From the NCBI GenBank assembly GCA_963701085.1, contig OY969561.1:96001-160000 (forward strand): a stretch of 64,000 nucleotides of DNA. The letters run 5' to 3'. Made by a program: the position numbers and the translations under genes. Origin of the DNA: an uncultured bacterium (lineage in GTDB: Bacteria; Babelota; Babeliae; Babelales; Vermiphilaceae). This document shows positions 637 to 61,860 of the stretch, piece after piece (position 1 is the first letter of the stretch; every line of letters starts with the position of its first letter). Under the pieces are notes generated by a model. It searched no databases. It was not told the DNA's origin and saw only the letters and a list, made by a program, of their open reading frames with translations.

Positions 637-711
637 TATTTTTTTAATTTTTTGCTGATTTCAAGTACACTGCTCATATTCTAATTTATTATGATACGAG
701 CGGAGTTTTAC

Positions 712-2079
712 ATGCATGATGGATATTTAAAAGTTGAACAATCTCCAGCACTCAAAGGTGAAGTCAGACTTACTGGAGCAAAGAATGCAGTTTTAGTTAC
801 CATTGCATCATTGATTTTAACAACGGGTAAATCATTATTGTACAATGTTCCTATTTCAGCTGATGTTTTTGAGATGATAGAGTTACTGCGCCATTTTGGT
901 GCAGTTATTTTTTTTGATGAAGAAAAGCATCAATTATTTGTGGATACAACATTACTGCATTCATGGAGCGTGAGTAGCGCGATGATGAAAAAAACGCGCA
1001 CGTCAATTTTAGTCATGGGGCCACTTTTGGCGCGTTTTGGTAAAGTACGTATTGGTGGACTTCCTGGTGGTGATGCTATTGGCAAACGTCCTATTGATTA
1101 TCATTTGAAAAATTTTGCAAAGATGGGTGTTGTTATTCATCACGAAGGTGATTATCTGTGCGCTGATGTTGAAAAGTTAGTAGCTGCCCGAATAGTGTTG
1201 GAATATCCGAGTGTGGGGGCAACAGAAAATATCATTATGGCAGCAACACGTGCCCAAGGGGCGACGAAAATTATAAATGCCGCGTGTGAACCCGAAGTTT
1301 TCAATTTGATTGCATGCCTGACAAAAATGGGGGCAAAAATAATTATTGAAGCTCCTGCCACTATTACCATTGAAGGTGTTGATATTTTGAACCCCATTGA
1401 ACACACCATTATGTTTGATCGTCTTGAAGCGGGATCATTGCTGATTGCTGCTGCTGCAACGGGGGGAGAAATTTATATTCCCGATGCATCGGCTGATGTA
1501 TTAGATGTATTTTTGCTCAAGCTTGAAGAAATGGGACATGCAATTACAATTGGTCCAAATAATAAGGGGATTTATCTTAAATCCACTCAGACACCGCATG
1601 CGGTGTCTTTTAAAACTGGACCATATCCAGGGTTTCCGACTGATTTGCAACCTCCCATGATGGCATTGCAATGCTTTGCATCAGGAACGAGTGTTATTGA
1701 AGAGACAGTATTTGAAAATCGTTTTCATCATGCACATGAGCTTATCAAAATGGGTGCATCAATTAAAATTGAACATAATAAAGTAATAGTCACCGGTGTT
1801 GAAAAATTATATGGTGCGCATGTTGTTGCAGCTGATATTCGCGCATCAACGGCGTTGGTTGTTGCTGGGTTGGTTGCGCATGGCACAACAATAGTTTCTG
1901 GTCTTCATCACTGGAAGCGTGGTTATGAAGCGTTAGAAAAAAAACTCCAGCATCTTGGCGCTAAAGTTGCGGTTCATGAAGGTGAAGATATGAGCGCTTT
2001 AATCCTTCAACAAGTTCCCGACTTCGCCAAGGCTTCGACGGGCACGCAGGATGAGCGCGGAAAGCAAACAGATTTATAA
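712..2079 (+). CDS. murA: UDP-N-acetylglucosamine 1-carboxyvinyltransferase, Asp115 type; C-terminal tail is repeat-derived
   Basis: GAKNA, LPGGDAIGKRPID, YPSVGATEN, PYPGFPTDLQ and DIRA motifs; GGAG precedes ATG 712. Confidence 0.95.
   Translation: MHDGYLKVEQSPALKGEVRLTGAKNAVLVTIASLILTTGKSLLYNVPISADVFEMIELLRHFGAVIFFDEEKHQLFVDTTLLHSWSVSSAMMKKTRTSILVMGPLLARFGKVRIGGLPGGDAIGKRPIDYHLKNFAKMGVVIHHEGDYLCADVEKLVAARIVLEYPSVGATENIIMAATRAQGATKIINAACEPEVFNLIACLTKMGAKIIIEAPATITIEGVDILNPIEHTIMFDRLEAGSLLIAAAATGGEIYIPDASADVLDVFLLKLEEMGHAITIGPNNKGIYLKSTQTPHAVSFKTGPYPGFPTDLQPPMMALQCFASGTSVIEETVFENRFHHAHELIKMGASIKIEHNKVIVTGVEKLYGAHVVAADIRASTALVVAGLVAHGTTIVSGLHHWKRGYEALEKKLQHLGAKVAVHEGEDMSALILQQVPDFAKASTGTQDERGKQTDL
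1992..2060 (+). repeat. Type B palindromic half-element with a 30-bp type A element (2017-2046) nested inside, in frame in the murA tail
   Basis: ATCCTTCAACAAGTT[CCCGACTTCGCCAAGGCTTCGACGGGCACG]CAGGATGAGCGCGG; compare the uninterrupted arm at 47827. Confidence 0.9.
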
Positions 2080-2095
2080 AGCCTAATATATGTTT

Positions 2096-2947
2096 TTAAA
2101 AATTACCCGCTAATTCAGTAATTTCAGTCGTAATTTTTGCTTGACGTATTTTGTTGTATTCTAACTTGGTGGTGTTCAACAAACTATTTGCGTTGCGCGT
2201 TGAATTATCCATGGAGATAAAGCGAGCGGCATGTTCAGAAAGCAGTGATTGGAAAATGAGGTGCTGAAATTGAGCCTCGATATACTGCACCGCGAGCGTG
2301 TTTAAGATCTCGCTTGGCGCTTCATCCCAGATATATCCTTCTGTTGGAGGTATGGTTGCTGCAGATATTGTTGCCGGATTGAATGGAATAAGATGGGTTA
2401 CGGTTGCCTTTTGGGTAAAAAAATTTTTAAAAACATTGCTGATGATAGTGACTGATGTATAGGCAGGTGTTGCCAGCATAACAAGATCAGTCAATTCTTG
2501 AGCGATTGTTAAAAAATTACGGGCAGTGAGCACGGGAAAAGAACAGATTAATCTATCAGGATAGTTGTTGATTAAATAATCAATTGGTTTTTTCCCGATA
2601 GCGCTAAAATGATAATGGGCTGATGGGTTTTGTTTTAAATATTCTTGTAAAAATTTTGAGAGCTGTGTATTAAAACCGCCACATAAACCTTTTTGTGATC
2701 CAATAACAACAATGAGAGGGTTACTGTTTTCACCGGTTGGCATAAGCCGCTCATGTGACCATGATGGAGTTGCTAGCTGTACCTTGGCAAGTAATGTTTT
2801 GAGCGCATTCAGGTATTCGCTGAGTGGCTCTTGTTTTATTTTAAGCCGTGAGTGAGCTGACATAGAAATAATACGCATCACATCAGTGACTTTTTTTATT
2901 GTTTCAATGGTTTGAATGCGATTGCGCATTTGAATGAGTTTGGACAT
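2096..2947 (-). CDS. atpG: F1 ATP synthase subunit gamma (stand-alone)
   Basis: RIQTIETIKKVT, KGLCGGFN, SEHAARFISMDNSTRNA, YNKIRQAKITTEITE. Confidence 0.93.
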   Translation of the reverse strand: MSKLIQMRNRIQTIETIKKVTDVMRIISMSAHSRLKIKQEPLSEYLNALKTLLAKVQLATPSWSHERLMPTGENSNPLIVVIGSQKGLCGGFNTQLSKFLQEYLKQNPSAHYHFSAIGKKPIDYLINNYPDRLICSFPVLTARNFLTIAQELTDLVMLATPAYTSVTIISNVFKNFFTQKATVTHLIPFNPATISAATIPPTEGYIWDEAPSEILNTLAVQYIEAQFQHLIFQSLLSEHAARFISMDNSTRNANSLLNTTKLEYNKIRQAKITTEITELAGNF

Positions 2948-3115
2948 GTTACCCCATGGCTGCTTGTGATAAAGCGATTGTATTAAACTTACTGTACCTG
3001 TACTTTAAGCATTTTTCAATGGTAATTATTTTGGCTTTATTGAAACAATGTTGTGTTAATTGATATACTTGCGATGTAGGGTAATAGGGTAGAAAAGTCT
3101 TAATTACGGATAAGT

Positions 3116-3706
3116 ATGATTATTGTTGTGGATGCGTACAACCTTTTACGTTCCGTGCCGCCGTATAAAAAGACCATTACGGACAAAGAGCGGGTGCAAT
3201 TTATTGCGCAGCTGGGTGCGTATGGCCGTCGCAAGGGTCACAAAATGATCATTGTTTTTGATGGTGGTCCTCATGAGTGGCCATTTAAAGAAAACATGAA
3301 AGCAATGACCATTGTCTATTCTGGCATCCATGATAGCGCAGATGATTATATTAAAGAGTATGTGGAAGCTCATCGTGCAAAGGATCTTTTACTTGTATCA
3401 TCTGATGCTGAATTGAATCGCTGGGCAGCGCGGCACAATATTCCCTCCATTGATTCATCAGGCTTTCATCATTTGTTGCATCAAGAGTTGTTGGCAAAGC
3501 AACCGATTGCTGAAAAAATTTCTGAAGTTACAAAATTGCATCGTGATAATGATGCAATAGATATTGACGCTCTCATGACGGAGGCGAGTAAAAGTGTACC
3601 AATAAAGAGCGAAGATTTAGCTCCGGTGAATAAAAGTCGTGATGCAAAAAAGGCTCAGGTTAGTAAAGGTGAGCGTGAATTATTAAAAAAGTTAAACAAA
3701 TTATAG
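3116..3706 (+). CDS. NYN-domain (YacP/Rae1-like) ribonuclease
   Basis: VDAYNL, IVFDG, SADDYI, VSSD motifs. Confidence 0.8.
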   Translation: MIIVVDAYNLLRSVPPYKKTITDKERVQFIAQLGAYGRRKGHKMIIVFDGGPHEWPFKENMKAMTIVYSGIHDSADDYIKEYVEAHRAKDLLLVSSDAELNRWAARHNIPSIDSSGFHHLLHQELLAKQPIAEKISEVTKLHRDNDAIDIDALMTEASKSVPIKSEDLAPVNKSRDAKKAQVSKGERELLKKLNKL

Positions 3707-3716
3707 AGCTATTCAT

Positions 3717-4193
3717 ATGAAGAACCATAACAAAGAGATTGTTTATTCATTAGATGAGCATGATAAGGTTATTCAAGAATTGAAAAATGCAATGGCAAGG
3801 TGTCAGGTCTTTGCCTTGAGCGGTCCTCTTGGTGCGGGAAAAACAACGACCATTAAAGCATTGCTACGTAGTTGCGGGGTGACTGGTACTATTACTAGTC
3901 CAACATTTACGTATGTTAATGAGTACGAAAACAGTCAAGGTGAGCATTTTTATCATTTTGATTTATATCGGATAGGTAGTGTGCAAGAGTTTCAGGCGCA
4001 GGGATTTGATGAATATTTGTATCAACCTGCCTTTCGTAGTTCGCAGAACGAAGTAGGGCCAAATAGTTGGGCATTTATCGAGTGGCCGGAGGTTATTGAG
4101 CCGCTTTTAACGCACAATGTCTGCTTTGTTTCATTTGATTATCACGATGACCCTGATAAACGGGTAGTTATCATAAAAGAGAGTGAATTTTAA
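3717..4193 (+). CDS. tsaE: tRNA t6A biosynthesis ATPase TsaE with an 11-aa repeat-derived insertion
   Basis: GPLGAGKTT, TSPTFT, HFDLYR, IEWPE. Confidence 0.95.
   Translation: MKNHNKEIVYSLDEHDKVIQELKNAMARCQVFALSGPLGAGKTTTIKALLRSCGVTGTITSPTFTYVNEYENSQGEHFYHFDLYRIGSVQEFQAQGFDEYLYQPAFRSSQNEVGPNSWAFIEWPEVIEPLLTHNVCFVSFDYHDDPDKRVVIIKESEF
4026..4058 (-). repeat. Type A element, 33 bp, in frame in tsaE
   Basis: Minus strand CCCTACTTCGTTCTGCGAACTACGAAAGGCAGG; encodes PAFRSSQNEVG. Confidence 0.8.
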
Positions 4194-4293
4194 AGATTTT
4201 TATCAAATAATGTGTTTTTCATCAAAATTAAGTTGAAATACATTGAGAAAAACAATATTATAGTTGAACAAGCTTGTAGATGTGCTTGGGTGC

Positions 4294-4378
4294 GGCGAGG
4301 TTCCCGAGCGGCCAAAGGGGGTGGACTGTAAATCCATCGGCTATGCCTTCGCTGGTTCGAATCCAGCCCTCGCCACCA
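4294..4378 (+). tRNA. tRNA-Tyr(GTA)
   Basis: Cloverleaf, anticodon loop CTGTAAA, long variable arm, GGTTCGAATCC, CCA. Confidence 0.97.
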
Positions 4379-4405
4379 GACTACGCTAAAGCTTCGTCTG
4401 GCAGG
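4376..4405 (+). repeat. Type A element starting at the tRNA-Tyr CCA
   Basis: CCAGAC-TAC-GCT-AA-AGC-TTC-GTCTGG-CAGG. Confidence 0.88.
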
Positions 4406-4481
4406 CCATCTTTTTAAAGGTTGGTTAGAATTATCAAAAAAACTTGGTAATTTAAAAAGATTAAGAAAACAATTGAAATGT

Positions 4482-4557
4482 GCGGGAATAGCTCAATTGG
4501 CAGAGCGACAGCCTTCCAAGCTGTAGGTTGCGAGTTCGACCCTCGTTTCCCGCTCCA
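4482..4557 (+). tRNA. tRNA-Gly(TCC)
   Basis: GCGGGAA acceptor stem, loop CTTCCAA, CCA. Confidence 0.97.
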
Positions 4558-4570
4558 GAAAAGTTATAAG

Positions 4571-4646
4571 GCCGGCGTAGCTCAGTTGGTAGAGCAGCTG
4601 ATTTGTAATCAGCAGGTCACTGGTTCGAATCCTGTCGCCGGCTCCA
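4571..4646 (+). tRNA. tRNA-Thr(TGT)
   Basis: GCCGGCG acceptor stem, loop TTTGTAA, CCA. Confidence 0.97.
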
Positions 4647-4674
4647 TACTTCGCACAAGGCTCCGTATGGCAGG
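4644..4674 (+). repeat. Type A element starting at the tRNA-Thr CCA
   Basis: CCATACTTCGCACAAGGCTCCGTATGGCAGG. Confidence 0.88.
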
Positions 4675-4733
4675 CCATTTTTTTCAAAGGTTTGACATTA
4701 AGACTTTTTGAAAAGATTGATAGCAGAAGCGAA

Positions 4734-4764
4734 GTATGCCCTTCGAAGCTTTAGCGTAGTAGGG
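4734..4764 (-). repeat. Type A element, inverted relative to the tRNA-adjacent copies
   Basis: Minus strand CCCTACTACGCTAAAGCTTCGAAGGGCATAC. Confidence 0.85.
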
Positions 4765-4869
4765 CTATCCTTATCTTTCTGATTTCTAATACACAATAGG
4801 TGTTCAAAAAGTTTGTCTTTTTCTGTTTTTTTAATTAATCTATAATAAACCGTAAGGATTACGGTTCAT

Positions 4870-4944
4870 GCCCACGTAGCTCAGAGGCAGAGCGCTTCCT
4901 TGGTAAGGAAGAGGCCACCGGTTCAATCCCGGTCGCGGGCTCCA
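4870..4944 (+). tRNA. tRNA-Thr(GGT)
   Basis: Loop TTGGTAA, GGTTCAATCCC, CCA; A5-C68 mismatch in acceptor stem. Confidence 0.94.
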
Positions 4945-4989
4945 GATAGAATCAGTTGAAATCAAGGTCTTATAAGTGTCTTTATAATT

Positions 4990-5148
4990 ATGGCAAAAAA
5001 TAGAAAAACTACTCATTTGGTTTGCGAAATATGCAAAGAACGTAACTATACTCAGGTTGTTTCAAAAAAAAGAACTATCGGTTCTTTAAAATTGAGTAAG
5101 TATTGTCCACGCTGTCGCAAGCACAATGATCATAAAGAAACAAAATAG
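4990..5148 (+). CDS. rpmG: 50S ribosomal protein L33, Zn-ribbon type, 52 aa (absent from ORF track)
   Basis: Manual translation [52 protein letters not shown]. Confidence 0.95.
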
Positions 5149-5157
5149 GCCCTTTGT

Positions 5158-5234
5158 AGGTCAGTAGCTCAATTTGGTAGAGCAGCAGACTCCAAATCTG
5201 CCGGTTGGGGGTTCGAGTCCCTCCTGGCCTGCCA
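5158..5234 (+). tRNA. tRNA-Trp(CCA)
   Basis: Loop CTCCAAA, GGTTCGAGTCC, CCA; canonical position between rpmG and secE. Confidence 0.97.
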
Positions 5235-5252
5235 TTAGAAAGAAGAGAGATA

Positions 5253-5453
5253 ATGATAAAAGATGTAACGCAGTTTGTTAAAGACGTGCAACTTGAGCTT
5301 TCAAAAGTTACTTGGCCTAAGTTTGATGAGTTTGTAGGATCAACGATAGTTGTCTTACTACTCATGTCTTTTTTTGCAGTTTATTTAGGTCTCGTTGATA
5401 AAGGGCTTACTGAGCTCTGGCGATTTGTAGTTAGATTGTATGGTGGTTACTAG
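5253..5453 (+). CDS. secE: Preprotein translocase subunit SecE
   Basis: ELSKVTWP plus one TM helix; start set at ATG 5253, after the tRNA. Confidence 0.93.
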   Translation: MIKDVTQFVKDVQLELSKVTWPKFDEFVGSTIVVLLLMSFFAVYLGLVDKGLTELWRFVVRLYGGY

Positions 5454-5474
5454 TTTTGACAGGACAAAGATCAT

Positions 5475-5993
5475 ATGAAGCGCTGGTATGTTGTACAAGT
5501 ATATGCAGGTTATGAGCAGGCAGCTAAGCTAGACATTGAGAAACGAATACAAGCAGAAGGAATGCAAGATTACTTTGGTGAAATTCTTGTGCCATCTGCT
5601 AAATCAAAACCAATGTTTGCAACAGATGACAGTGCTGATCAGCAACTTTTTCCTGGTTACATCTTAGCCGAAATAGAAATGACTCCCGAGTCACTTCGTG
5701 TTGTAACCGCAAGCATTCGTGTCTTGAGATTTTTGGGGGGCAAAAATCCTGAGCCAATATCACAAAAAGAGATCGATCGTATTATTTCCCAAGTTAAAGG
5801 GGAAGTTGCGGTTGAAACTACGCGAGAAGAGTATTCACTTGGCAGTGAGGTAGATATAGTTGAGGGTCCGTTTGCTGGATTTGTCGGTATTATTGATAGC
5901 GTAGATTATAATAACGAAAAATTAACAGTTATGGTTAGTATTTTTGGCAGAATGACCCCGGTTGAACTTGGCTTTCATCAAATTAAGCGATAA
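5475..5993 (+). CDS. nusG: Transcription elongation factor NusG
   Basis: WYVVQVYAGYE, LFPGYIL, GPFAGF, IFGRMTPVEL. Confidence 0.97.
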   Translation: MKRWYVVQVYAGYEQAAKLDIEKRIQAEGMQDYFGEILVPSAKSKPMFATDDSADQQLFPGYILAEIEMTPESLRVVTASIRVLRFLGGKNPEPISQKEIDRIISQVKGEVAVETTREEYSLGSEVDIVEGPFAGFVGIIDSVDYNNEKLTVMVSIFGRMTPVELGFHQIKR

Positions 5994-6013
5994 TCAGTGA
6001 GGTAATTGTCTCT

Positions 6014-6439
6014 ATGGCAAAAATAGTTAAAGCAAAAATTAAGCTTCAGATTCAAGGTGCGAGCGCGACTCCGGCTCCTCCTGTGGGATCGTCACTTGGT
6101 CAACACCAAGTCAATATTATGGAGTTCTGTAAGGCATTTAATGCTCAAACATCTGGTCGCAAAGGCGAAACTGTGCCGGTAGAAATTACTGTATACACTG
6201 ATCGTACATTTGAGTTCAGGGTAAAAACTTCGCCAACTACCGAGCTTATTAAAAAGCGAATTAGTCTTACAAAAGGTTCGCCTCGTCCTCATGAAATTAA
6301 AGTTGGAAAAATTTCATGGAAGGATATTGAAGAAATCGCAAAAATTAAAATGCCAGATTTGACTGCAGTTGATATGGATCAGGCAAAAAAAATTGTCGCT
6401 GGCAGTGCGCGAAGTATTGGAATTGACGTTGTTGATTGA
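6014..6439 (+). CDS. rplK: 50S ribosomal protein L11
   Basis: ATPAPPVGSSLGQ, NIMEFCKAFN. Confidence 0.97.
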   Translation: MAKIVKAKIKLQIQGASATPAPPVGSSLGQHQVNIMEFCKAFNAQTSGRKGETVPVEITVYTDRTFEFRVKTSPTTELIKKRISLTKGSPRPHEIKVGKISWKDIEEIAKIKMPDLTAVDMDQAKKIVAGSARSIGIDVVD

Positions 6440-6453
6440 GCTAGGAAAATATA

Positions 6454-7152
6454 ATGGCTAAGCATGGAAAAAAATATCACGCAGCGGTATCGAAGAAGCC
6501 TAGTAATGATCTTGGTGTAGATGTAGCATTTCAACAAGTTAAAGATCTTTCTTTTGCCAAATTTGATGAGTCCATTGATGTGGCTATCAACTTGGGTATA
6601 GATCCAGCTAAGGGTGAGCAAACAGTTCGAGGTTCTGTTGTTTTGCCTCATAGCAAAGGAAAAGAGAAAGTCATTATTGTTTTTGCAAAAGGTGAATTTG
6701 CTGATGCAGCAAAAAAAGCGGGAGCTGATTTTGTGGGCATGGAAGACCTTATTGAAAAAATACAAGGTGGCTGGCTTGATTTTGATTATGCAGTAGCAAC
6801 ACCAGATGTTATGGGTGCGGTTGGTGTGCTTGCAAGAGTTTTGGGTCCTCGTGGATTGTTGCCAAACAAAAAAGTAGGCACAGTTACGTTCGATGTAGAA
6901 GCAATTGTTACTGATTTAAAAAAAGGCCGTGCTTTCTTCAGAAATGATAAGCAGGGTATTGTTCATTTTTCAATAGGTAAAGTTTCATTTGATGTTAAAA
7001 AGCTTCATGATAATTTAGATGCTTTAGTTAAGGCAGTTGTGGGATCAAAACCGGCGACCGCTAAAGGCAAGTATCTGAAAAAAATGACCGTGTCCTCAAC
7101 AATGGGCATTGGTATTGCGATTAACTCTGACGAATTTGTGCGTTCCTTATAG
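6454..7152 (+). CDS. rplA: 50S ribosomal protein L1
   Basis: AKFDESID, LGPRGLLPN, SSTMG. Confidence 0.97.
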   Translation: MAKHGKKYHAAVSKKPSNDLGVDVAFQQVKDLSFAKFDESIDVAINLGIDPAKGEQTVRGSVVLPHSKGKEKVIIVFAKGEFADAAKKAGADFVGMEDLIEKIQGGWLDFDYAVATPDVMGAVGVLARVLGPRGLLPNKKVGTVTFDVEAIVTDLKKGRAFFRNDKQGIVHFSIGKVSFDVKKLHDNLDALVKAVVGSKPATAKGKYLKKMTVSSTMGIGIAINSDEFVRSL

Positions 7153-7166
7153 GTAAAGAGGTTTCA

Positions 7167-7694
7167 ATGAATCGACAACAAAAAGAATCGGTTGTTGAGT
7201 TATTTCATAAAGATTTTTTGGCAAATAAGGGCACCTTTTTTGTTAATTATTCCGGATTAACTGTTGGTCAAATGCAACAATTAAGAAGGCAATTGCGTGA
7301 AAAAGGCGGCGCGCTTAAAATTGCAAAGATGCGGCTTGTTAAACGAGCACTTGCAAGTGTTAAGGGTGCTGATGGGCTTCTTTCTCATTGTAAAAATCAG
7401 TTAGGTGTTGTTTTTGCGTATGACTCAGCAGAAGTATCTGGTATAGCAAAAGCTCTTAATGATTTTTCAAAAAAGAATGAATCACTTGGCCTTGTTGTTG
7501 GTTGCGTGGATGCACAGCTTTTGGATAAGACAGCAATCACTCGTATTGCATCTCTTCCATCAAAAGAAGTACTGCTTGCTCAGCTATGTGGTACGCTGAA
7601 TGCTCCATTGACCTCGCTTGTGTTTGGACTTAACTCTATGATTGTGAAGCTATTGGTTGCTTTAAAAGAAGTCGAAAAGCAAAAGCAAGCGTAG
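7167..7694 (+). CDS. rplJ: 50S ribosomal protein L10
   Basis: YSGLTV..LRRQL, LPSKEVLLAQL; synteny. Confidence 0.95.
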   Translation: MNRQQKESVVELFHKDFLANKGTFFVNYSGLTVGQMQQLRRQLREKGGALKIAKMRLVKRALASVKGADGLLSHCKNQLGVVFAYDSAEVSGIAKALNDFSKKNESLGLVVGCVDAQLLDKTAITRIASLPSKEVLLAQLCGTLNAPLTSLVFGLNSMIVKLLVALKEVEKQKQA

Positions 7695-7763
7695 TGATAA
7701 GTTTGTCTCATATAATAGATGATAGTAGTTGTTTATAGTACTTTTTAATGTTTAGGGATTGCA

Positions 7764-8150
7764 ATGGCAGCAAAATCTTACGAAAAATTCATTGACGAAA
7801 TAGGTAATATGACGGTTCTTGAGCTTGCTGATCTTGTTAAAGCTCTTGAATCAAAATTCGGTATCTCAGCAGCTATGCCAATGGCATCAGCAGCTCCAGC
7901 GGCATCAGCAGATGCAGCTCCAGTAGCAGCAGAAAAGAGCGAATATAAAGTATCTCTTACTGATGCAGGATCTGAAAAAATTAAGGTGATTAAAGCATTG
8001 CGCGAAGTTATTCCTAATCTAGCGCTTTCTGATGCTAAGAAATTAACAGAAGAAACACCAGCTGTCATCGCTGAATCAGTATCAAAAGCTGACGCAGAAA
8101 AGATGAAAAAGAAACTTGAAGAAGCTGGCGCAAAAGTAGAGCTTGCATAA
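7764..8150 (+). CDS. rplL: 50S ribosomal protein L7/L12
   Basis: KFGISAA, KIKVIKALRE, LEEAGAKVEL. Confidence 0.97.
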   Translation: MAAKSYEKFIDEIGNMTVLELADLVKALESKFGISAAMPMASAAPAASADAAPVAAEKSEYKVSLTDAGSEKIKVIKALREVIPNLALSDAKKLTEETPAVIAESVSKADAEKMKKKLEEAGAKVELA

Positions 8151-8172
8151 CGTTGTTATGCGGGCTTTTTTT
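8141..8172 (+). terminator. Intrinsic terminator/attenuator between rplL and rpoB
   Basis: GCTTGCATAAC-GTT-GTTATGCGGGC followed by T7. Confidence 0.7.
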
Positions 8173-8175
8173 GTT

Positions 8176-8246
8176 CCCCATCTTCAGTTTTCCGACTTCG
8201 TTAAAACTTTGTCGGACAGGCATTTCGATGGGGACCCCAATTGGAG
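8176..8246 (+). repeat. Type F element with a nested 30-bp type A element (8191-8220)
   Basis: CCCCATCTTCAGTTT[TCCGACTTCGTTAAAACTTTGTCGGACAGG]CATTTCGATGGGGACCCC; empty copy at 28500-28540. Confidence 0.88.
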
Positions 8247-8386
8247 TCATTTAATTTTTCATAAAAGTTACCCAACGGTAACAAGGTGAAAATTAAGTTA
8301 AAAGATTGGGGTAAAATGATTTTTTGGTGTAGTGGGGGATGGAATTTGATTGGCCACATGTTTGGCGTTAGTAAGGAGTGGTCTAA

Positions 8387-54964: not shown

Positions 54965-56835
54965 TATTTTTCCCTATATGTTTTGCGAGTTCAACAGCAA
55001 CTTCTTTAATCATAGATTGCCAATCACCTGGCGTAGGTTGTTTGAATAGGCGAGTGATGTTTGGATACCATGGAGAATCATTGCGATCTATCATCCAGCG
55101 CCAATCAGCAGGGTTCGGGAGCATAATCCATGTTGGTGTGCCAAGCCCACTTGCAAGATGGCTGATTGATGTATCAACCGTGATAATAAGATCGAGATTT
55201 TTTATTACCGCAGCAGTATCCATAAAACGACCATTGCTCTGATCAAAATCACCATCAAACGTGATAATGCGCATGCCTTCTGGTAAATCCTTAAGTTGAT
55301 CGGTGCCGGTTGTTTTTTGCAGGCTGTAAACAGTTACGCCGGGAACGTTGCAAATAGGTGCAAACTCTTTTGGATGTACTGATTTTTGGGCAACGGTTGC
55401 GCGTAATAATGGTGTTGCATAGTTATCATTTCCTTGCCAACAGATGCCAATTTTAAAGTTTTTATCCGCGGATAATTTTTGTTTCCAATCAGCTACTAAT
55501 TTTTCATCAGCATAAAGGTATGGAATTTCACAGGGAACAGTATCAAGGCGTGTTTTCAGAACATACGGTAATGATAACAATGGTGAATGAACATCAAAGT
55601 GTGGGGGGGTGTCATCGAGTGAAATCACTTGATCGATATGTTTGCAACGTTTCATGAGGGTGACGAGTGGTTTTTGTACTGCAGCAATAACAATGCCATT
55701 TTTTTCTTTGATCAATTTCGCGTAACGAATAAATTGAAACGTATCGCCAAGCCCTTGTTCTGCGTGAATTAAAATTGTTTTGCCTTGTAAATCTGATCCA
55801 TCCCAGCGTGGTTCAGAGTAGCTGCGCAATGATCCTTGAGAAGGGCGGTCTGTAGCGCCATTCATATCCATGCCATCCGCGTTCAAAATCGCCGATTACA
55901 AGATACGCAAGGCCGCGACTAAAGAGTGCCTCTGCATGGTTGGGATTAAGCTCGAGTACTTTATTATAGTAAGGGAGTGCTTGATCCAAGTAACCAAATT
56001 TTTTGTAAGTGAATGCAATGTTGTATAAAATTGATGGATTGTTTGGTAGTTGACGGTTAAGATCTTGGTATATTGCGAGTGATTCATCAAGTCTGTTGAC
56101 GGTGTTATAAACATTAGCAAGTTCAAAGGTTAAGTTGATATGGCCTGGTTCAAGGGTAAGCCCATCAGTAATAATATTAAGTGCTTGATTAAAAAGATGT
56201 TTATCATTGTAAACGCGTGCAAGTAATAGACGCGTGTCAGGGTCATTGGGGTTAAGAATGAGTGCTTGTTTAAATGGTTCAATTGCATCGCCTGCTTGTT
56301 TGACATCCGTCATTACTTTGCCAATTTGAATGTATGCACGATAGTGATCTTTTTTATGCTGAATTGTTTTTTTATACGCATATAACGCCTCAGAATATTT
56401 TTTTGCATAATAGAGTGCTTGACCAAGATTGAAAAATATCTGTGCGCAGGTGGGATTTAATGCAAGTGCTTGTTTGTAAAATGCAATTGCTTCATCATAC
56501 TGTTCTGCGGTAAAAAGGCCATTTGCATGTTTGCTGAGTGCTTCAAAAGATTGGTAGTCGATATATGAGTGTGGTTGTGGTTTTTTGAGATAATTTTCTA
56601 TTGCGGTAAACGTAACTTGTTTGTTTGCATTGCAAAGGGATGTAGTGAGTAGTAGAAGGATTACCCTTCGATACATTCTCCTGTGGAGAACACTCAGGGC
56701 GAGCGGGAAGAGAAATATATTATTCTTAAGGATTGCGGTAAATTCTAGCCCGCTCGTCCTGAGTGCCACCGTAGGTGGTGTATCGAAGGATGGTGCGGAA
56801 GAAAAACGTAGAATAGTTTGTTTAGTTGTATTCAT
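54951..56835 (-). CDS. TPR-repeat plus GT9-like glycosyltransferase with an apparent +1 insertion near 55851
   Basis: Removing one base from TGG CGC TAC A GAC CGC joins GYEWRY to DRPSQGSL..WDGSDLQGK; EQGLGDTFQF. Confidence 0.85.
56663..56791. repeat. Inverted pair of type C elements (56663-56707 plus, 56749-56791 minus) in the 5' coding region
   Basis: Inner hairpins TTCTCC/GGAGAA and CCACC/GGTGG. Confidence 0.88.
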
Positions 56836-56837
56836 AA

Positions 56838-56895
56838 AAAACTCCTTTTTTGTGCGCTTCTATTTCTGCTTTGTTATACACAAAAAAGGAGTTTT
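56838..56895. promoter_or_regulatory. Perfect 17-bp inverted repeat covering the RBS of the TPR-GT gene
   Basis: AAAACTCCTTTTTTGTG-N24-CACAAAAAAGGAGTTTT. Confidence 0.6.
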
Positions 56896-56965
56896 AATCA
56901 ATTTGATTAATAGTCTTTACCCATTTGCCCATTTGTGGTATGATGTGTTATAAGAGGTACCAATT

Positions 56966-57226
56966 ATGAAAAAAGAAACAAAATACGTAAAAATAGATTC
57001 CCGTAATCGTATTACCATACCAAAAAAGCTATCTGAGGGCATGTCTCATCTGTATGAGATATATGAGAAAGATGGGAAGATTATTCTTGAGCCAGTTTAT
57101 GAGGTTCCTAAAGAAGAAAAATGGTTGTTTGATCCTAAAAATAGGGCAATCGTTGATGAACTTAAGGCAGCACTCAAAGAAAAGGCTCACATAAGAATAG
57201 ATTTAAGCCAATTTGAAGAAGAATAA
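56966..57226 (+). CDS. AbrB/MazE-type antitoxin
   Basis: KIDSRNRITIPK, DGKIILEP; GAGG RBS. Confidence 0.8.
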   Translation: MKKETKYVKIDSRNRITIPKKLSEGMSHLYEIYEKDGKIILEPVYEVPKEEKWLFDPKNRAIVDELKAALKEKAHIRIDLSQFEEE

Positions 57227-57229
57227 TTA

Positions 57230-57526
57230 ATGACTTTTATATTGGAATATTCGGACACAGCGGCGAGACATTTTATGAGTCTCAAGGCTGATTCTTCGAA
57301 ACATAGAATTTTCAAGGACGTTGTTAAAGCTTTGCGGTACATGGAAAGTAATTTGCGGCATCCATCTTTAAACACTCATGAATACCATACTCTTAAAGGT
57401 CCTGGCGGTGAAAAGGTATTTGAGTCATATGCCCAACAAAAAACGCCTGGAGCATATCGAATATTTTGGCACTATGGTCCTGGTAAAAATATCATTTCAA
57501 TATTAGCAATTATACCTCATCCTTAA
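57230..57526 (+). CDS. RelE/ParE-superfamily-like toxin
   Basis: LEYSDTA, RHPSLNTH, GAYRIFWHYGP, IIPHP; coupled to the AbrB-like gene. Confidence 0.7.
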   Translation: MTFILEYSDTAARHFMSLKADSSKHRIFKDVVKALRYMESNLRHPSLNTHEYHTLKGPGGEKVFESYAQQKTPGAYRIFWHYGPGKNIISILAIIPHP

Positions 57527-57633
57527 AATTTGATTACAAAACACGATCAAAGAAAAATCAAAACAATTGGCTAAAAAAAAGTGTTGTATAGTACTTGCAA
57601 GTACTATACAACACTTTTTTTAATAAAATCAAT

Positions 57634-58743
57634 TTACAGTTCGCTTGGCGTCCACTTATTAATATATTCAACAAGAGGCGCAATGCTTTTTTTTGTAAGG
57701 GATGAAACAACAACGTGTGGCTCGTATTGTTCAATGGCTCCCGCTAAAAGCGTTGTATCAATTTTGTCGGCCTTGTTAAATACATAGAGTATTGGTGTTT
57801 CAATATTGAGGTCTTCAAGGATGTCGTTAACAACATGGATATGGTTTCGCCAGCCTGTATCGGCAATATCAACAACATGTAATAATAAATCAGCATAATG
57901 TAATTCTGAAAGTGTTGATTTAAATGCGTCAATTAATCGTGGAGGGAGTTGTTGAATAAATCCAACGGTATCAGAAATGGTACCCTTTTTTGTGCCATGA
58001 ATAAACAGTGAGCGTGTTGTTGTATCAAGGGTTGCAAACAGTTTATCTTCCGCCAAAACATTACTGTTGGTCAGTATGTTTAATATGGTTGATTTACCCG
58101 CGTTGGTATATCCAATAAGACAGACATTGGGCTCATTGTTGTTCAAGCGTTGTTTGCGGCGTGTTTCGCGCGCACTGTGCATTTTTGCAAGATGTCTTTT
58201 GATTTGTAAAATACCATCTTCAATATGACGGGTTTCTTTTTCTTTTGCCGTTTCACCAAAGCCGCCACGAACACCAATGGCGCCACATTGTTGGCCAAAA
58301 TGGATACCGCGACCAGAAAGGCGTGATTTTTTATGCTGTAGTTGAGCGATGGCAACTTGGAGCTTACCTTCTGCGGTATGAGCTGATTTTTCGAAAATTT
58401 CTAAAATAAGTTCAGTTCTATCAAAAATGTTACAATCAAATAATTCTCCCAAATTGCCGGCTTGGCGTGAAGAAAGAGGTTCAGATATAATTACCTGCTC
58501 AATTCCGTTTTCATCGCAAAATAACTTAATTTCATCTCGTTTACCCTTGGTTAAAAAATAACCAGGATCAATGGTACGAATTTTTATATTAAGCTCTTCA
58601 GCATCACGGACACCATTGGTGCGTGCTAAGTTACGAAATTCTTCAAAATAGGATTCCGTATTAGCAACATGATTTTGTGGCGATTGTACGCCCAGAAGGA
58701 GGGTTTTTGGGTAGACTACCGTAGAGGTTGCTTGTCTTTTCAT
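57634..58743 (-). CDS. hflX: Ribosome-splitting GTPase HflX
   Basis: DRTELILEIF, GYTNAGKST, LFATLD, DTVGFI, NKAD. Confidence 0.96.
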   Translation of the reverse strand: MKRQATSTVVYPKTLLLGVQSPQNHVANTESYFEEFRNLARTNGVRDAEELNIKIRTIDPGYFLTKGKRDEIKLFCDENGIEQVIISEPLSSRQAGNLGELFDCNIFDRTELILEIFEKSAHTAEGKLQVAIAQLQHKKSRLSGRGIHFGQQCGAIGVRGGFGETAKEKETRHIEDGILQIKRHLAKMHSARETRRKQRLNNNEPNVCLIGYTNAGKSTILNILTNSNVLAEDKLFATLDTTTRSLFIHGTKKGTISDTVGFIQQLPPRLIDAFKSTLSELHYADLLLHVVDIADTGWRNHIHVVNDILEDLNIETPILYVFNKADKIDTTLLAGAIEQYEPHVVVSSLTKKSIAPLVEYINKWTPSEL

Positions 58744-58809
58744 GATTTTTTGCCTTATTTAAAAAAAGTGCTGCGCACTTTTCATCGTATTAAGCTTGTA
58801 TGTGTTTCC

Positions 58810-58954
58810 CGCGCTCGCCCTGACCCTTCGGCAAGCTCAGGAGTAAACACCTGCCTTGAGAACTTGCAGTGCCTGCCGAAGCCTTGGCGAAGGCAGGTTG
58901 AAGGGTTTCTTAGAGCGCTCGAAGAGATCCTTCAACAGGTTCAGGACGAGCGCG
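58810..58954. repeat. Full type B element with nested type D (58824-58848) and an inverted type A-containing insert (58854-58897)
   Basis: CCCTGA[CCCTTCGGCAAGCTCAGGAGTAAAC]ACCTG[..GTGCCTGCCGAAGCCTTGGCGAAGGCAGG]TTGAAGGG. Confidence 0.9.
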
Positions 58955-61582: not shown

Positions 61583-61813
61583 ATGATAAAAGAATTGGTC
61601 ACTTTTGTAGTGCAGCAATTGGTTTCGCATCCACAAGACGTTGTCGTGAGTGTTACTGAAAAAGATGATATAAATCTTTTTGAAATCAAAGTATCACCAG
61701 AAGACCGAGGACGTGTTATTGGAAAAGAAGGGCATACAATTAAATCATTGCGTGCTTTGATTGATGTAGCATCACCTTATGGAAAAAAAGTTTCACTTGA
61801 ACTGTCTCGGTAA
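61583..61813 (+). CDS. khpA: KH-domain RNA-binding protein
   Basis: DRGRVIGKEGHTIKSLR; follows rpsP. Confidence 0.9.
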   Translation: MIKELVTFVVQQLVSHPQDVVVSVTEKDDINLFEIKVSPEDRGRVIGKEGHTIKSLRALIDVASPYGKKVSLELSR

Positions 61814-61852
61814 TCCTTCGATACACCCCTACGGGGCACTCAGGATGAGCGC
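61813..61852 (+). repeat. Type C element filling the khpA-trmD gap
   Basis: ATCCTTCGATACA-CCCCTACGGGG-CACTCAGGATGAGCGC. Confidence 0.9.
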
Positions 61853-61860
61853 AAAATATA

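Follow-up and report, generated by a model that had tools for sequence, protein, structure and literature searches.

The small nested palindromes in a 64,000-nucleotide stretch of an uncultured Vermiphilaceae bacterium (Babelota; contig OY969561.1, positions 96,001 to 160,000; in the following called the window) are members of a family of hairpin repeats spread over the whole genome. Their likely partner, with a probability of roughly 0.6 for this reading, is a small Ssn-like GIY-YIG nuclease whose gene is bracketed by units of the same family. An earlier note on the window had described small palindromes nested in each other at recurrent junctions; this pattern is real, and every place named there reads as described.

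From the genome-wide comparison of copies, the basic unit is a hairpin with the conserved core CGCTCRYCCTGA ... YGAAGG. An outer stem surrounds the core CCTGA(G/A) ... (C/T)GAAGG, whose halves can base-pair if two G.A mismatches are allowed. At its apex the unit is unconstrained and has either CYTGT as a loop of 5 nt, a hairpin of variable sequence (“G-type”) or extra modules (A, D, F). G-type units, with the structure CCTGAGTG-hairpin-TGTATCGAAGG, form the second largest class. The “B” element is an inverted doublet made of two units, and the A hairpin has its own purine-rich GAA/GAA internal loop plus a (C/G)TG leader. Modules are nested up to three deep. Of the six types distinguished previously (A to F), we could count A, B, D, E and F, while a separate C of ~41 bp was not identifiable (the leftover segment 58850-58870 gave one BLAST hit in the genome) and the G-type class had been overlooked.

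The anchor CGCTCRYYCTGA, allowing at most one mismatch, occurs 271 times in the 1,198,634-bp genome versus 15, 19 and 16 times in three shuffles. Counted by module in the genome, the window and three Markov controls, there are 148 simple units (10 in the window; 6, 2 and 5 in the controls), 68 G-type units (5; 0), 60 strand hits of B doublets at about 30 loci (2; 0), 14 D modules (2; 0), 13 D+A modules (2; 0), 16 F modules (2; 0) and 17 E modules (2; 0, 0 and 1). Module bases lie to 78.5% outside and to 21.5% inside greedy ORFs, which make up 81.7% of the genome. The window holds about 18 family members, listed here by window position and strand, with genome anchors and their strand signs where assigned:

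1994..2060, minus: one B arm, a single hairpin unit, in which a 30-nt A insert (CGTG + hairpin) separates CCTG from AACTTG; genome anchor 98057-
4376..4401, minus: free-standing A hairpin abutting the 3′ end of the tRNA gene 4294-4375; CAGGCCAT and a T run come next
4644..4670, minus: A hairpin standing free (“empty”), directly adjoining the tRNA gene 4571-4643
8172..8236, minus: F[A], the loop of the first F hairpin holding an A hairpin; genome 104216-; z -2.65
16919..16977, minus: A[A], two A hairpins, the inner one (16930-16962) in the loop of the outer, which abuts the tRNA 16847-16918; genome 112957-
28448..28655, no strand: E[B[F]], a B doublet with F in its left arm, enclosed by E outer repeats; genome 124478+, 124612-; z -3.81
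37696..37740, plus: single simple unit; genome 133698+
44706..44774, no strand: short B-type doublet, two inverted units; genome 140708+, 140772-
47836..47866, minus: single simple unit; genome 143862-
48078..48122, minus: G-type unit, core halves around a CCCCGGTAGGGG hairpin; genome 144120-
48160..48195, plus: free-standing A hairpin with GGCCTG leader; genome 144169+
50269..50343, no strand: empty B, two complete units forming an inverted doublet; -31.4 kcal/mol when folded as DNA, z -9.24
50385..50430, minus: G-type unit with A/T hairpin; genome 146427-
54793..54928, no strand: B doublet, right arm with D + A (subfamily TGCTTCGAC...); genome 150923-, 150795+
56663..56708, minus: G-type unit, left member of a back-to-back pair; genome 152705-
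56750..56795, plus: G-type unit, right member of the pair; genome 152751+; z -2.51
58810..58954, no strand: B doublet, left arm with D + extra 21 nt + A (subfamily CCCTTCGGC...); genome 154812+, 154952-; z -4.89
61808..61853, minus: G-type unit; genome 157851-

The first of these illustrates how a module can reach into a reading frame, overlapping the 3′ end of ORF 691..2079; its empty counterpart lies at genome position 231592. It had been read as a B with an A insert at 2002; the insert is present, but its host is a single arm and not a full B.

No enzyme for the elements is encoded within the window, as the earlier note had stated. Of the candidates that it listed (an HUH/RAYT, IS200-like or GIY-YIG gene flanked by the same elements), a GIY-YIG gene does exist elsewhere in the genome. 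By tblastn, four intact paralogous GIY-YIG ORFs of 96-99 aa (~97 aa) were found, at 231646, 1091357 and 1102879 on the plus strand and at 339150-339449 on the minus strand. They match PF01541 (E 6.6e-18, covering residues 5-77), and their best solved relatives are the UPF0213 GIY-YIG proteins 1zg2 (E 1.6e-14) and 1ywl (E 1.6e-12); NCBIfam has no specific model for them. Inverted B-arm units enclose the first three genes, and inverted G-type units the fourth. The same arrangement, with a forward unit just upstream of the gene and a reverse unit just downstream, was seen in all ten fetched loci, from this genome (G000) and nine sister species; in one of these (G010), D+A composites resembling those in the window serve as the bracketing arms. 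Unit type follows gene clade: genes of the B-type clade have CCTGAACTTGTTGAAGG arms, and those of the G clade mostly G-type arms or others. The gene looks functional because catalytic-type residues are kept (Y8, Y17/Y18, G20, R28, H32 and E66 are invariant or nearly so among 16 sequences) and the paralogue pN/pS is about 0.12-0.15 / 0.61-0.63. With a dS of about 1.3, the three B-type paralogues are of old origin, so that nothing points to recent cassette copying within the genome. As B is the same pair of units that brackets the GIY-YIG genes, it looks like a gene-less, REPIN/MITE-like form of the unit-gene-unit cassette.

Repeats and gene also tend to occur together among 31 genomes, scored at a GIY match threshold of E<=1e-5. 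A match was present in 11 of 13 genomes with at least 20 simple units, versus 6 of 18 with fewer; G001, for example, has one unit and no GIY-YIG gene. The two exceptions among unit-rich genomes are G005, with 36 simple and 10 G-type units, and G016, with 26 units in an assembly that is only 61% complete. Cassette positions differ between species. The two neighbour genes of the 231.6-kb cassette of G000 are separated by 21 nt in G005, 11 nt in G007 and 20 nt in G004, cassettes 82-85% identical to it are located elsewhere in G004, G006 and G009, and none of the nine fetched sister loci shares flanks with any G000 copy. We infer from these comparisons that the unit-gene-unit cassette is mobile.

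Across phyla, the strict G motif was detected in records whose titles name Babeliales/Dependentiae, Dehalococcoidia, Flavobacteriales, Cloacimonadota, Fibrobacteria and others, and small GIY-YIG ORFs adjoin such units in Cloacimonadota, Fibrobacteria, Flavobacteriales and Eisenbacteria. Of 13 small GIY-YIG ORFs inspected outside the order, only about 6 have a unit close by; conversely, such a gene lies within the 300-bp flanks of only 2 of 128 motif loci and in the 600-bp flanks of none of 132 viral loci. Of the distinct cross-phylum inserts between core halves, 99 of 116 close with at least four pairs, versus 1.9% of shuffles. Much of the apparent nesting is variation of the apical region, framed by the two conserved halves of the core; this applies across phyla, and a recent insertion need not lie behind each case.

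These associations bear on an unlikely alternative, in which the palindromes are older repeats that spread independently and the GIY-YIG genes are homing-type invaders of the centre of a B or G doublet, so that the nuclease would explain its own position only and neither the spread of the repeats nor their nesting. Such invasion would fit the gene always sitting exactly at the meeting point of the doublet's two units, the excess of units over genes of about 60 to 1, the units retained in G005 without a gene match and the age of the paralogues. It does not fit well with the correspondence of gene clade and unit type, with the pairing of gene and GA-core unit in four other phyla, or with the fact that the published Ssn enzymes recognise precisely their own flanking hairpins (PMC11893778).

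In the two B elements with D and A inserts, the order is CCTGA-[D]-ACCYG-[A]-TTGAAGG, compared with CCTGA-ACYTG-TTGAAGG in the empty B; likewise, F[A] and A[A] have empty counterparts at 28500 and 4644-4670. Both B[D,A] composites are members of multi-copy composite subfamilies, with 6 and 4 close copies plus variants and with members in sister species too, and so are not independent events. The same composites recur in independent assemblies of sister species; among short Logan contigs, none bridged an element. The site orthologous to window position 54793, compared in sister genomes as had been proposed, is empty in G005, G001 and G009 and holds six different element sets in G007, G002, G010, G004, G006 and G003.

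The A hairpins sit at one fixed point of the core, CTG^AG/AA (CCTGAG/CCTGAA), in several unrelated hosts, and at GA^AG in A and F hosts. Among strict A hairpins, 46 of 54 are preceded by (C/G/T)TG. A hairpins of differing sequence, with their own leader, occupy the CTG^ position of several kinds of host (B arm, G-type, simple unit and D), and at this junction they occur also in two sister species (G006 and G002). No target duplication was seen at the junctions of A inserts, and their 3′ junctions in different hosts share 1-2 nt only (AACTTG, AGTG, AGCTTG). The same point of entry in unrelated hosts, with different A sequences, fits independent site-specific insertion of the A hairpin. The earlier idea of independent insertion is supported for A but not for the two B[A,D] composites, each of which belongs to a subfamily that is copied whole.

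Recombination, gene conversion or template switching between core-sharing units, with the nests as products of copy-choice at microhomologies and no dedicated enzyme, is a still less probable explanation. Blockwise inheritance of composites, the different element sets at one intergenic site and the short motifs common to all modules at junctions (CTG, GAAG) are what it would produce. The 1-2 nt shared at the 3′ junctions of A are, however, too little for homologous exchange, the cassette and repeats occur at sites cleanly empty in sister species, and the strict bracketing of nuclease genes is left unexplained.

Selection of copies at the RNA level appears very improbable. The core with its covarying stems would then be a G.A/kink-turn-like protein-binding motif, a ribozyme or a 3′-end element, in line with its conservation across phyla with compensatory stems and with the A hairpins directly 3′ of three tRNA genes in the window, followed by T runs. 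In Rfam 15, the window at gathering thresholds yielded tRNAs only, with the elements unmatched, and 12 other-phylum loci at E<=1 gave only chance microRNA-like matches. G-type units show no sense-strand bias, with 26 sense versus 34 antisense downstream of gene ends and 13 versus 18 upstream. The missing strand bias and Rfam matches argue for a DNA-level rather than RNA-level role. Moreover, a doublet presents both strands, the linked gene belongs to a DNA nuclease family, and Ssn is inactive on RNA (PMC11893778).

The REP/RAYT model favoured earlier, with elements moved by an HUH Y1 transposase (RAYT or IS200-like), can practically be dismissed despite a similar architecture of inverted doublets, mosaics and a repeat-flanked enzyme gene, since PF01797 had no match in the genome (one contig, with a marker completeness of 92.6%), the same search being positive in 6 of 14 control genomes, and neither an IS110-type DEDD transposase (PF01548) nor a transposase-like multi-copy ORF family was found. 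We also rejected a MITE of a DDE or DEDD insertion sequence, given the latter two results and A junctions without duplication.

If the GIY-YIG nuclease is indeed the partner of the repeats, we infer cleavage and mobility to proceed as follows. The nuclease would bind the hairpin in single-stranded DNA and nick in or beside it, and host repair, copying or recombination would then spread cassettes, doublets and single hairpins. A would be the module most clearly entering other modules, and its fixed step, in the unit core or in A and F hosts, may mark the nuclease cut site. To our knowledge, GIY-YIG enzymes form no covalent DNA intermediate, so strand transfer would need other factors. Oriented units show no replication-strand bias (for G-type, 29 leading versus 43 lagging), which counts against a single-stranded DNA mechanism, as this might have left one. 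A more far-reaching version is tentative and rather doubtful: a large branch of small GIY-YIG nucleases would act on the cross-phylum GA-core hairpins, and the nested filled and empty sites would record the reaction, a nick of the folded hairpin's 5′ arm at the G^A step of the purine-rich internal loop, where another GA-type hairpin (A with its CGTG leader) is joined in without target duplication. If true, a GIY-YIG enzyme would drive the insertion of one hairpin into another by a single-strand pathway, and the multiplication of Ssn-type repeats would for the first time be explained at the sequence level.

Several known systems resemble this one in part. REP, REPIN and BIME elements with RAYT, reportedly described by Nunvar in 2010, Bertels and Rainey in 2011 and Ton-Hoang in 2012, are likewise short extragenic palindromes of which the inverted doublet is probably what moves; they too form mosaic clusters, have a low-copy enzyme gene between copies of its repeat and rely on hairpin recognition in single-stranded DNA, the last being presumed here. 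Their enzyme is an HUH Y1 transposase, in contrast to the GIY-YIG protein here, and with no covalent intermediate the chemistry of spread must differ. Neisseria dRS3/NIME, Correia-type mosaics and Rickettsia palindromic elements are also small palindromes that flank genes, build mosaics and in some copies reach into reading frames; their sequences differ, and the hairpins here enter each other at fixed steps. IS110/IS1111-family elements insert into REP hairpins, and thus also target another repeat's hairpin at a fixed position, but the inserts here are gene-less hairpins of 26-35 nt, and the genome has no PF01548 match.

Compared by genes and repeats, the Ssn system with its SRM/NTS hairpin repeats is the closest known. 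According to Chenal et al. (Nat Commun 2025, PMC11893778), Ssn nucleases are ~94-aa single-domain GIY-YIG proteins of the cd10448 clade that cut single-stranded DNA strand-specifically next to the hairpin repeats flanking their gene, which are amplified genome-wide, with no action on RNA or double-stranded DNA; spread of the repeats by Ssn is not demonstrated there, and the sole Dependentiae genome of the table, Babela massiliensis, is given with 0 SRM and no Ssn. The SRM pattern HGTCWY...RNCYNB has no match in G000 (0, 1 and 2 in Markov controls), so that, judged by sequence, the hairpins here are a repeat class distinct from the published SRM. They also differ from SRMs in the core CCTGAR...YGAAGG with its G.A mismatches and free apical region, in nesting and in B doublets and composite arms copied as families. 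Common to both are a single-domain GIY-YIG protein of less than 100 aa, inverted hairpin repeats bracketing its gene, hundreds of mostly intergenic copies of the flanking repeat, a conserved 5′ leader that gives the repeats an orientation, repeat pairs flanking ordinary genes, often for surface or secreted proteins, and an enrichment of the system in host-associated bacteria.

All places named in the earlier note, which described small palindromic elements nested in one another, match their description on re-reading the window sequence, and this observation is confirmed and extended by our analysis of the window's own genome (G000; one contig of 1,198,634 bp, G+C ~38%). The window occupies 96001-160000 of this contig. 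The empty B element (50269-50343), used as BLAST query, yielded 160 pieces genome-wide, and the 12-nt anchor CGCTCRYYCTGA (≤1 mismatch) was found 271 times in G000 compared to 15, 19 and 16 times in three shuffles. Together with the pattern counts of seven module classes, for which Markov controls gave 0-6, these numbers indicate that the elements are no peculiarity of the window.

Module classes in G000 by pattern count
Simple units: 148
G-type units: 68
Doublets: 60 strand hits
D: 14
D+A: 13
F: 16
E: 17

The modules detected comprise at least 10,867 bases (0.91%) of G000. Outside greedy ORFs lie 78.5% of these bases, and the greedy ORF set covers 81.7% of the genome.

A grammar was derived by sorting the 271 anchors on their downstream sequence. 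From these emerges a single basic unit in which an outer stem (GCGCTCG/CGAGCGC or CCGC/GCGG, among others) surrounds a conserved core and a free apical region. The core reads CCTGA(G/A)...(C/T)GAAGG and can pair as CCT/AGG, with two G.A mismatches and a G-C or A-T pair. The units differ in the length and content of the apical region.

Apical regions downstream of the 271 anchors
5-9 nt, 136 of 271: loop CYTGT
15-39 nt, 73 of 271: a hairpin; this "G-type" unit, CCTGAGTG-hairpin-TGTATCGAAGG, was overlooked in the earlier note
45-64 nt, 20 of 271: mostly D+A
80-114 nt, 7 of 271: F and others
Closing half not found, 35 of 271: in part chance anchors

The larger modules follow from the same plan. 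B consists of two complete back-to-back units with a common central GCGC. D, read on the opposite strand, is a small unit itself, with the core CCTGAGCTTGCCGAAGG, a different leader and a covarying closing pair (CCT/AGG, GCT/AGC, ACT/AGT). The A hairpin combines a variable outer stem with a GAA/GAA internal loop, a GC clamp and a short loop; the triplet (C/G/T)TG stands immediately 5' of 46 of the 54 strict A copies. As single-stranded DNA, the empty B (z -9.2), B[D,A] at 58808 (z -4.9; square brackets denote nesting, here a B doublet with D and A in one arm), B[F] (z -3.8), F[A] (z -2.65) and one G-type unit (z -2.5) fold better than their shuffles; B[D,A] at 54791 (z -1.55), A[A] (z -0.5) and arm[A] (z -0.4) did not stand out under the same energy model, in which G.A pairs are uncredited.

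Some variants and tandem arrangements were also recognized. In some units (locus L130 of the relative G007, and loci L151 and L153 of other phyla) the core stem CCTGAG...CGAAGG is swapped to GGTGAG...CGAACC, a double compensatory change that retains the pairing and both G.A steps. The orthologue of the window 54793 site in another relative (L138, G010:C1) holds five ~97-bp head-to-tail repeats, each with a reverse G-type unit, then one forward unit. At a Flavobacteriales contig end (L014), a complete 38-nt G-type unit is present three times, head-to-tail and spacerless, hence a tandem array rather than dispersed copies. Outside the window, G000:C1 210420-211046 carries a 491-bp tandem duplication with a D-linked doublet in each copy.

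By screening inverted unit pairs enclosing 200-4000 bp, we identified in G000 four paralogous ORFs of 96-99 amino acids, each located between inverted units.

GIY-YIG ORFs in G000 (genome coordinates)
231646-231942, plus strand, flanked by inverted B-arm units
1091357-1091653, plus strand, flanked by inverted B-arm units
1102879-1103172, plus strand, flanked by inverted B-arm units
339150-339449, minus strand, flanked by inverted G-type units

These paralogues possess a GIY-YIG domain (PF01541, E 6.6e-18), and among solved structures they are closest to the UPF0213 proteins 1zg2 (E 1.6e-14) and 1ywl (E 1.6e-12); the Protein Atlas returned only generic "GIY-YIG nuclease family protein" clusters. 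Y8, G20, R28, H32 and E66 never vary in the 16 sequences compared (this order plus four other phyla), and Y17/Y18 hardly do. The G000 genes differ from each other mainly at synonymous positions (pN 0.12-0.15, pS 0.61-0.63). Profile searches of G000 gave no match to PF01797 (RAYT/IS200) or PF01548 (IS110), and a multi-copy ORF screen revealed no transposase-like family. The RAYT/HUH class of enzyme suggested earlier is therefore not upheld, the gene flanked by the elements being GIY-YIG. The statement that the window encodes no transposase holds, since none of the four genes lies inside it.

Ordinary genes also occur within inverted unit pairs, all outside the window (G000:C1 230786-231462, 237036-241036, 778049-781590, 1049476-1051500 and 1154793-1156112). 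Their N-termini are mostly signal-peptide-like, and the layout resembles the repeat-gene-repeat arrangement reported around Neisseria surface-protein genes.

In all ten loci retrieved (G000 plus nine sister species), units bracket the GIY-YIG gene: a forward unit ends 15-30 nt 5' of the start codon, and past the stop a reverse unit starts within ~15 nt. In the gene clade with 70-85% identity to the first G000 copy the arms are of the CCTGAACTTGTTGAAGG type; in the clade at 55-58% identity they are G-type or other, and those of the G010 gene, from the latter clade, are D+A composites like the ones in the window. A GIY match (E≤1e-5) was found in 11 of the 13 genomes with at least 20 simple units (exceptions G005 and G016, the latter 61% complete) and in 6 of the 18 genomes with fewer, counts that are descriptive only because these 31 genomes are kin. 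One of them, G001, has a single unit and neither the G-type motif nor the GIY-YIG gene.

Orthologous sites in sister genomes, proposed earlier as a check, were found in filled and empty versions. In G000, the cassette at 231.6 kb and a unit-flanked membrane-protein gene separate two genes that lie 21, 11 and 20 nt apart in G005, G007 and G004, respectively. Cassettes with 82-85% DNA identity to this cassette reside at other positions in G004, G006 and G009, and in none of the nine sister loci (best locus per genome) were flanking genes shared with any G000 cassette. G005, G001 and G009 are empty at the intergenic site of window 54793, where G007, G002, G010, G004, G006 and G003 hold six differing element sets. 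Cassettes and repeats have thus both been gained and lost at otherwise syntenic places.

The nested elements were previously attributed to independent, site-specific insertions by a trans-acting enzyme. The window's two B[D,A] composites did not arise independently: each belongs to a multi-copy subfamily with identical junctions, CCCTTCGGC with six and TGCTTCGAC with four close copies in G000, and composite copies at 83-92% identity occur in sister species. Judged as the earlier note itself proposed, by whether composites trace to a duplicated ancestor, these nests go back to descent from composite ancestors. The A hairpin presents a different picture, as with its own leader (CGTG, CCGTG or CTGTG) it is positioned precisely 3' of a core CTG in several host classes of G000.

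A hairpins after a core CTG (genome coordinates)
98057, 778049, 627391: in B arms
927326, 594488, 1048842: in G-type units
266076: in a simple unit
231498, 1144720, 1156206: in D units

These A copies differ from one another in outer stem and loop, no target duplication was seen at the junctions in any of the four host classes, and the CTG junction recurs in G006 and G002. In A and F hosts, entry is at GA^AG or in the loop. The common feature of the A junctions is a purine step in the 5' arm of a hairpin. Nesting, site-specificity for A and a trans-acting enzyme flanked by the elements hence remain from the earlier interpretation; the enzyme class and, in part, independence do not.

We consider a DNA-level element the better reading over an RNA-level one, as G-type units showed no sense-strand preference relative to neighbouring genes, oriented units had no significant replication-strand bias (G-type 29 vs 43; A 24 vs 27), and Rfam at gathering score matched only six tRNAs in the window and none of the elements. 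In 12 other-phylum loci, Rfam at E≤1 gave only chance microRNA-like matches. Some copies may nevertheless have an RNA role, such as the A hairpins after tRNA genes. The letters CUGA...GAA prompted a comparison with hammerhead and other known ribozyme cores; these were rejected, as neither spacing nor letters seem to fit and neither Rfam scan gave a match.

Three of the six window tRNA genes abut an A hairpin followed by CAGGCCAT (or CACGACCT) and 5-8 T (4376-4412, 4644-4685, 16919-16995), and 8-12 A hairpins genome-wide have this GGCCTG-leader context. They may represent a tRNA 3'-end/terminator module or a favoured landing site. Two ORFs extend into elements, 691..2079 with its 3' end and 53486..54964 in its upstream part. 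Translated units yield recurrent pseudo-peptides, and gene callers will lengthen or invent ORFs there, which bears on the annotation of metagenome-assembled genomes. An rpoC-like frame (12705-16527) appears as two ORFs, 12705..14258 and 14230..16527, with a 29-nt overlap; the split may be natural, or it may reflect a frameshift or an assembly error. No short Logan contig over 50000-59500 spans an element (best DNA runs share ≤0.20 of words), and no RNA sequencing run matching this DNA was listed.

The units reach beyond the order. The strict G motif was detected in 17 of the 31 relatives and in three viral contigs; the species collection contains it in at least 124 stretches, whose record titles include Babeliales/Dependentiae/TM6, Dehalococcoidia, Flavobacteriales, Cloacimonadota, Fibrobacteria, Eisenbacteria, Sideroxydans and others. 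By our own arithmetic ~100 matches are expected by chance in 596 Gb, so the count by itself proves nothing. The matches are nevertheless real, since 99 of 116 distinct G inserts, beginning with 40 different tetranucleotides, close with at least four pairs compared to 1.9% of shuffles; for the outer stem, the evidence is less strong (49 of 140 vs 22% in a flank-swapped control). About 6 of 13 small GIY-YIG ORFs from eight genomes of other phyla adjoin GA-core units.

Loci with a GIY-YIG ORF next to a GA-core unit
L151: Cloacimonadota
L153: Fibrobacteria
L152, L159: Flavobacteriales
L157, L163: Eisenbacteria

An Ssn-like GIY-YIG ORF was present at 2 of 128 motif loci (four from relatives, 124 from the species-collection scan with 300-bp flanks). 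The simple unit occurs in at least 129 viral contigs; among 132 fetched viral simple-unit loci, 29 had the usual leader and none an Ssn-like GIY-YIG ORF within 600 bp.

A system of this kind was published in 2025. The Ssn family members (CDD cd10448) are single-domain GIY-YIG proteins of ~94 amino acids; on single-stranded DNA they bind a hairpin repeat (NTS/SRM) and cleave the DNA upstream of that repeat (Chenal et al. 2025, PMC11893778). SRM repeats lie near 71% of Ssn genes and on both sides of 42%, and the authors likened the repeat-gene-repeat arrangement to an insertion sequence and compared it with REP/RAYT (PMC11893778). Mobility was not shown, and repeat spread and a role outside Neisseria were left open (PMC11893778). 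The units described here add a second, differently built repeat class that is tied to an Ssn-like gene, escapes the published pattern and occurs in many phyla. They sit in a compact 1.2-Mb genome where two Pfam transposase families and the multi-copy ORF screen gave no other transposase candidate, and exact filled/empty junctions at the cassette, doublet and single-hairpin levels predict the cut position of the enzyme. Repeat mobility thereby becomes directly testable, with four short proteins and few oligonucleotides.

Literature searches on UPF0213/COG2827/YhbQ/cd10448/cd10456 and on SsnA/Ssn-related motifs yielded Chenal et al. as the only relevant paper among those listed; those on Dependentiae palindromic repeats gave no paper on such elements by title or abstract, and those on recurrent pseudo-peptides of units nothing relevant. 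In the Ssn table, the sole Dependentiae genome is entered with neither repeats nor gene, and the words "nested" and "Dependentiae" are absent from the main text (PMC11893778). The G000 proteins, which may fall in cd10448 or in the neighbouring UPF0213 group, belong to a system of common design with Ssn/SRM, but the published SRM pattern has no match in G000. As far as these searches show, novelty lies in the repeat class, in the rules of its nesting, in its reach across phyla and in the exact junctions.
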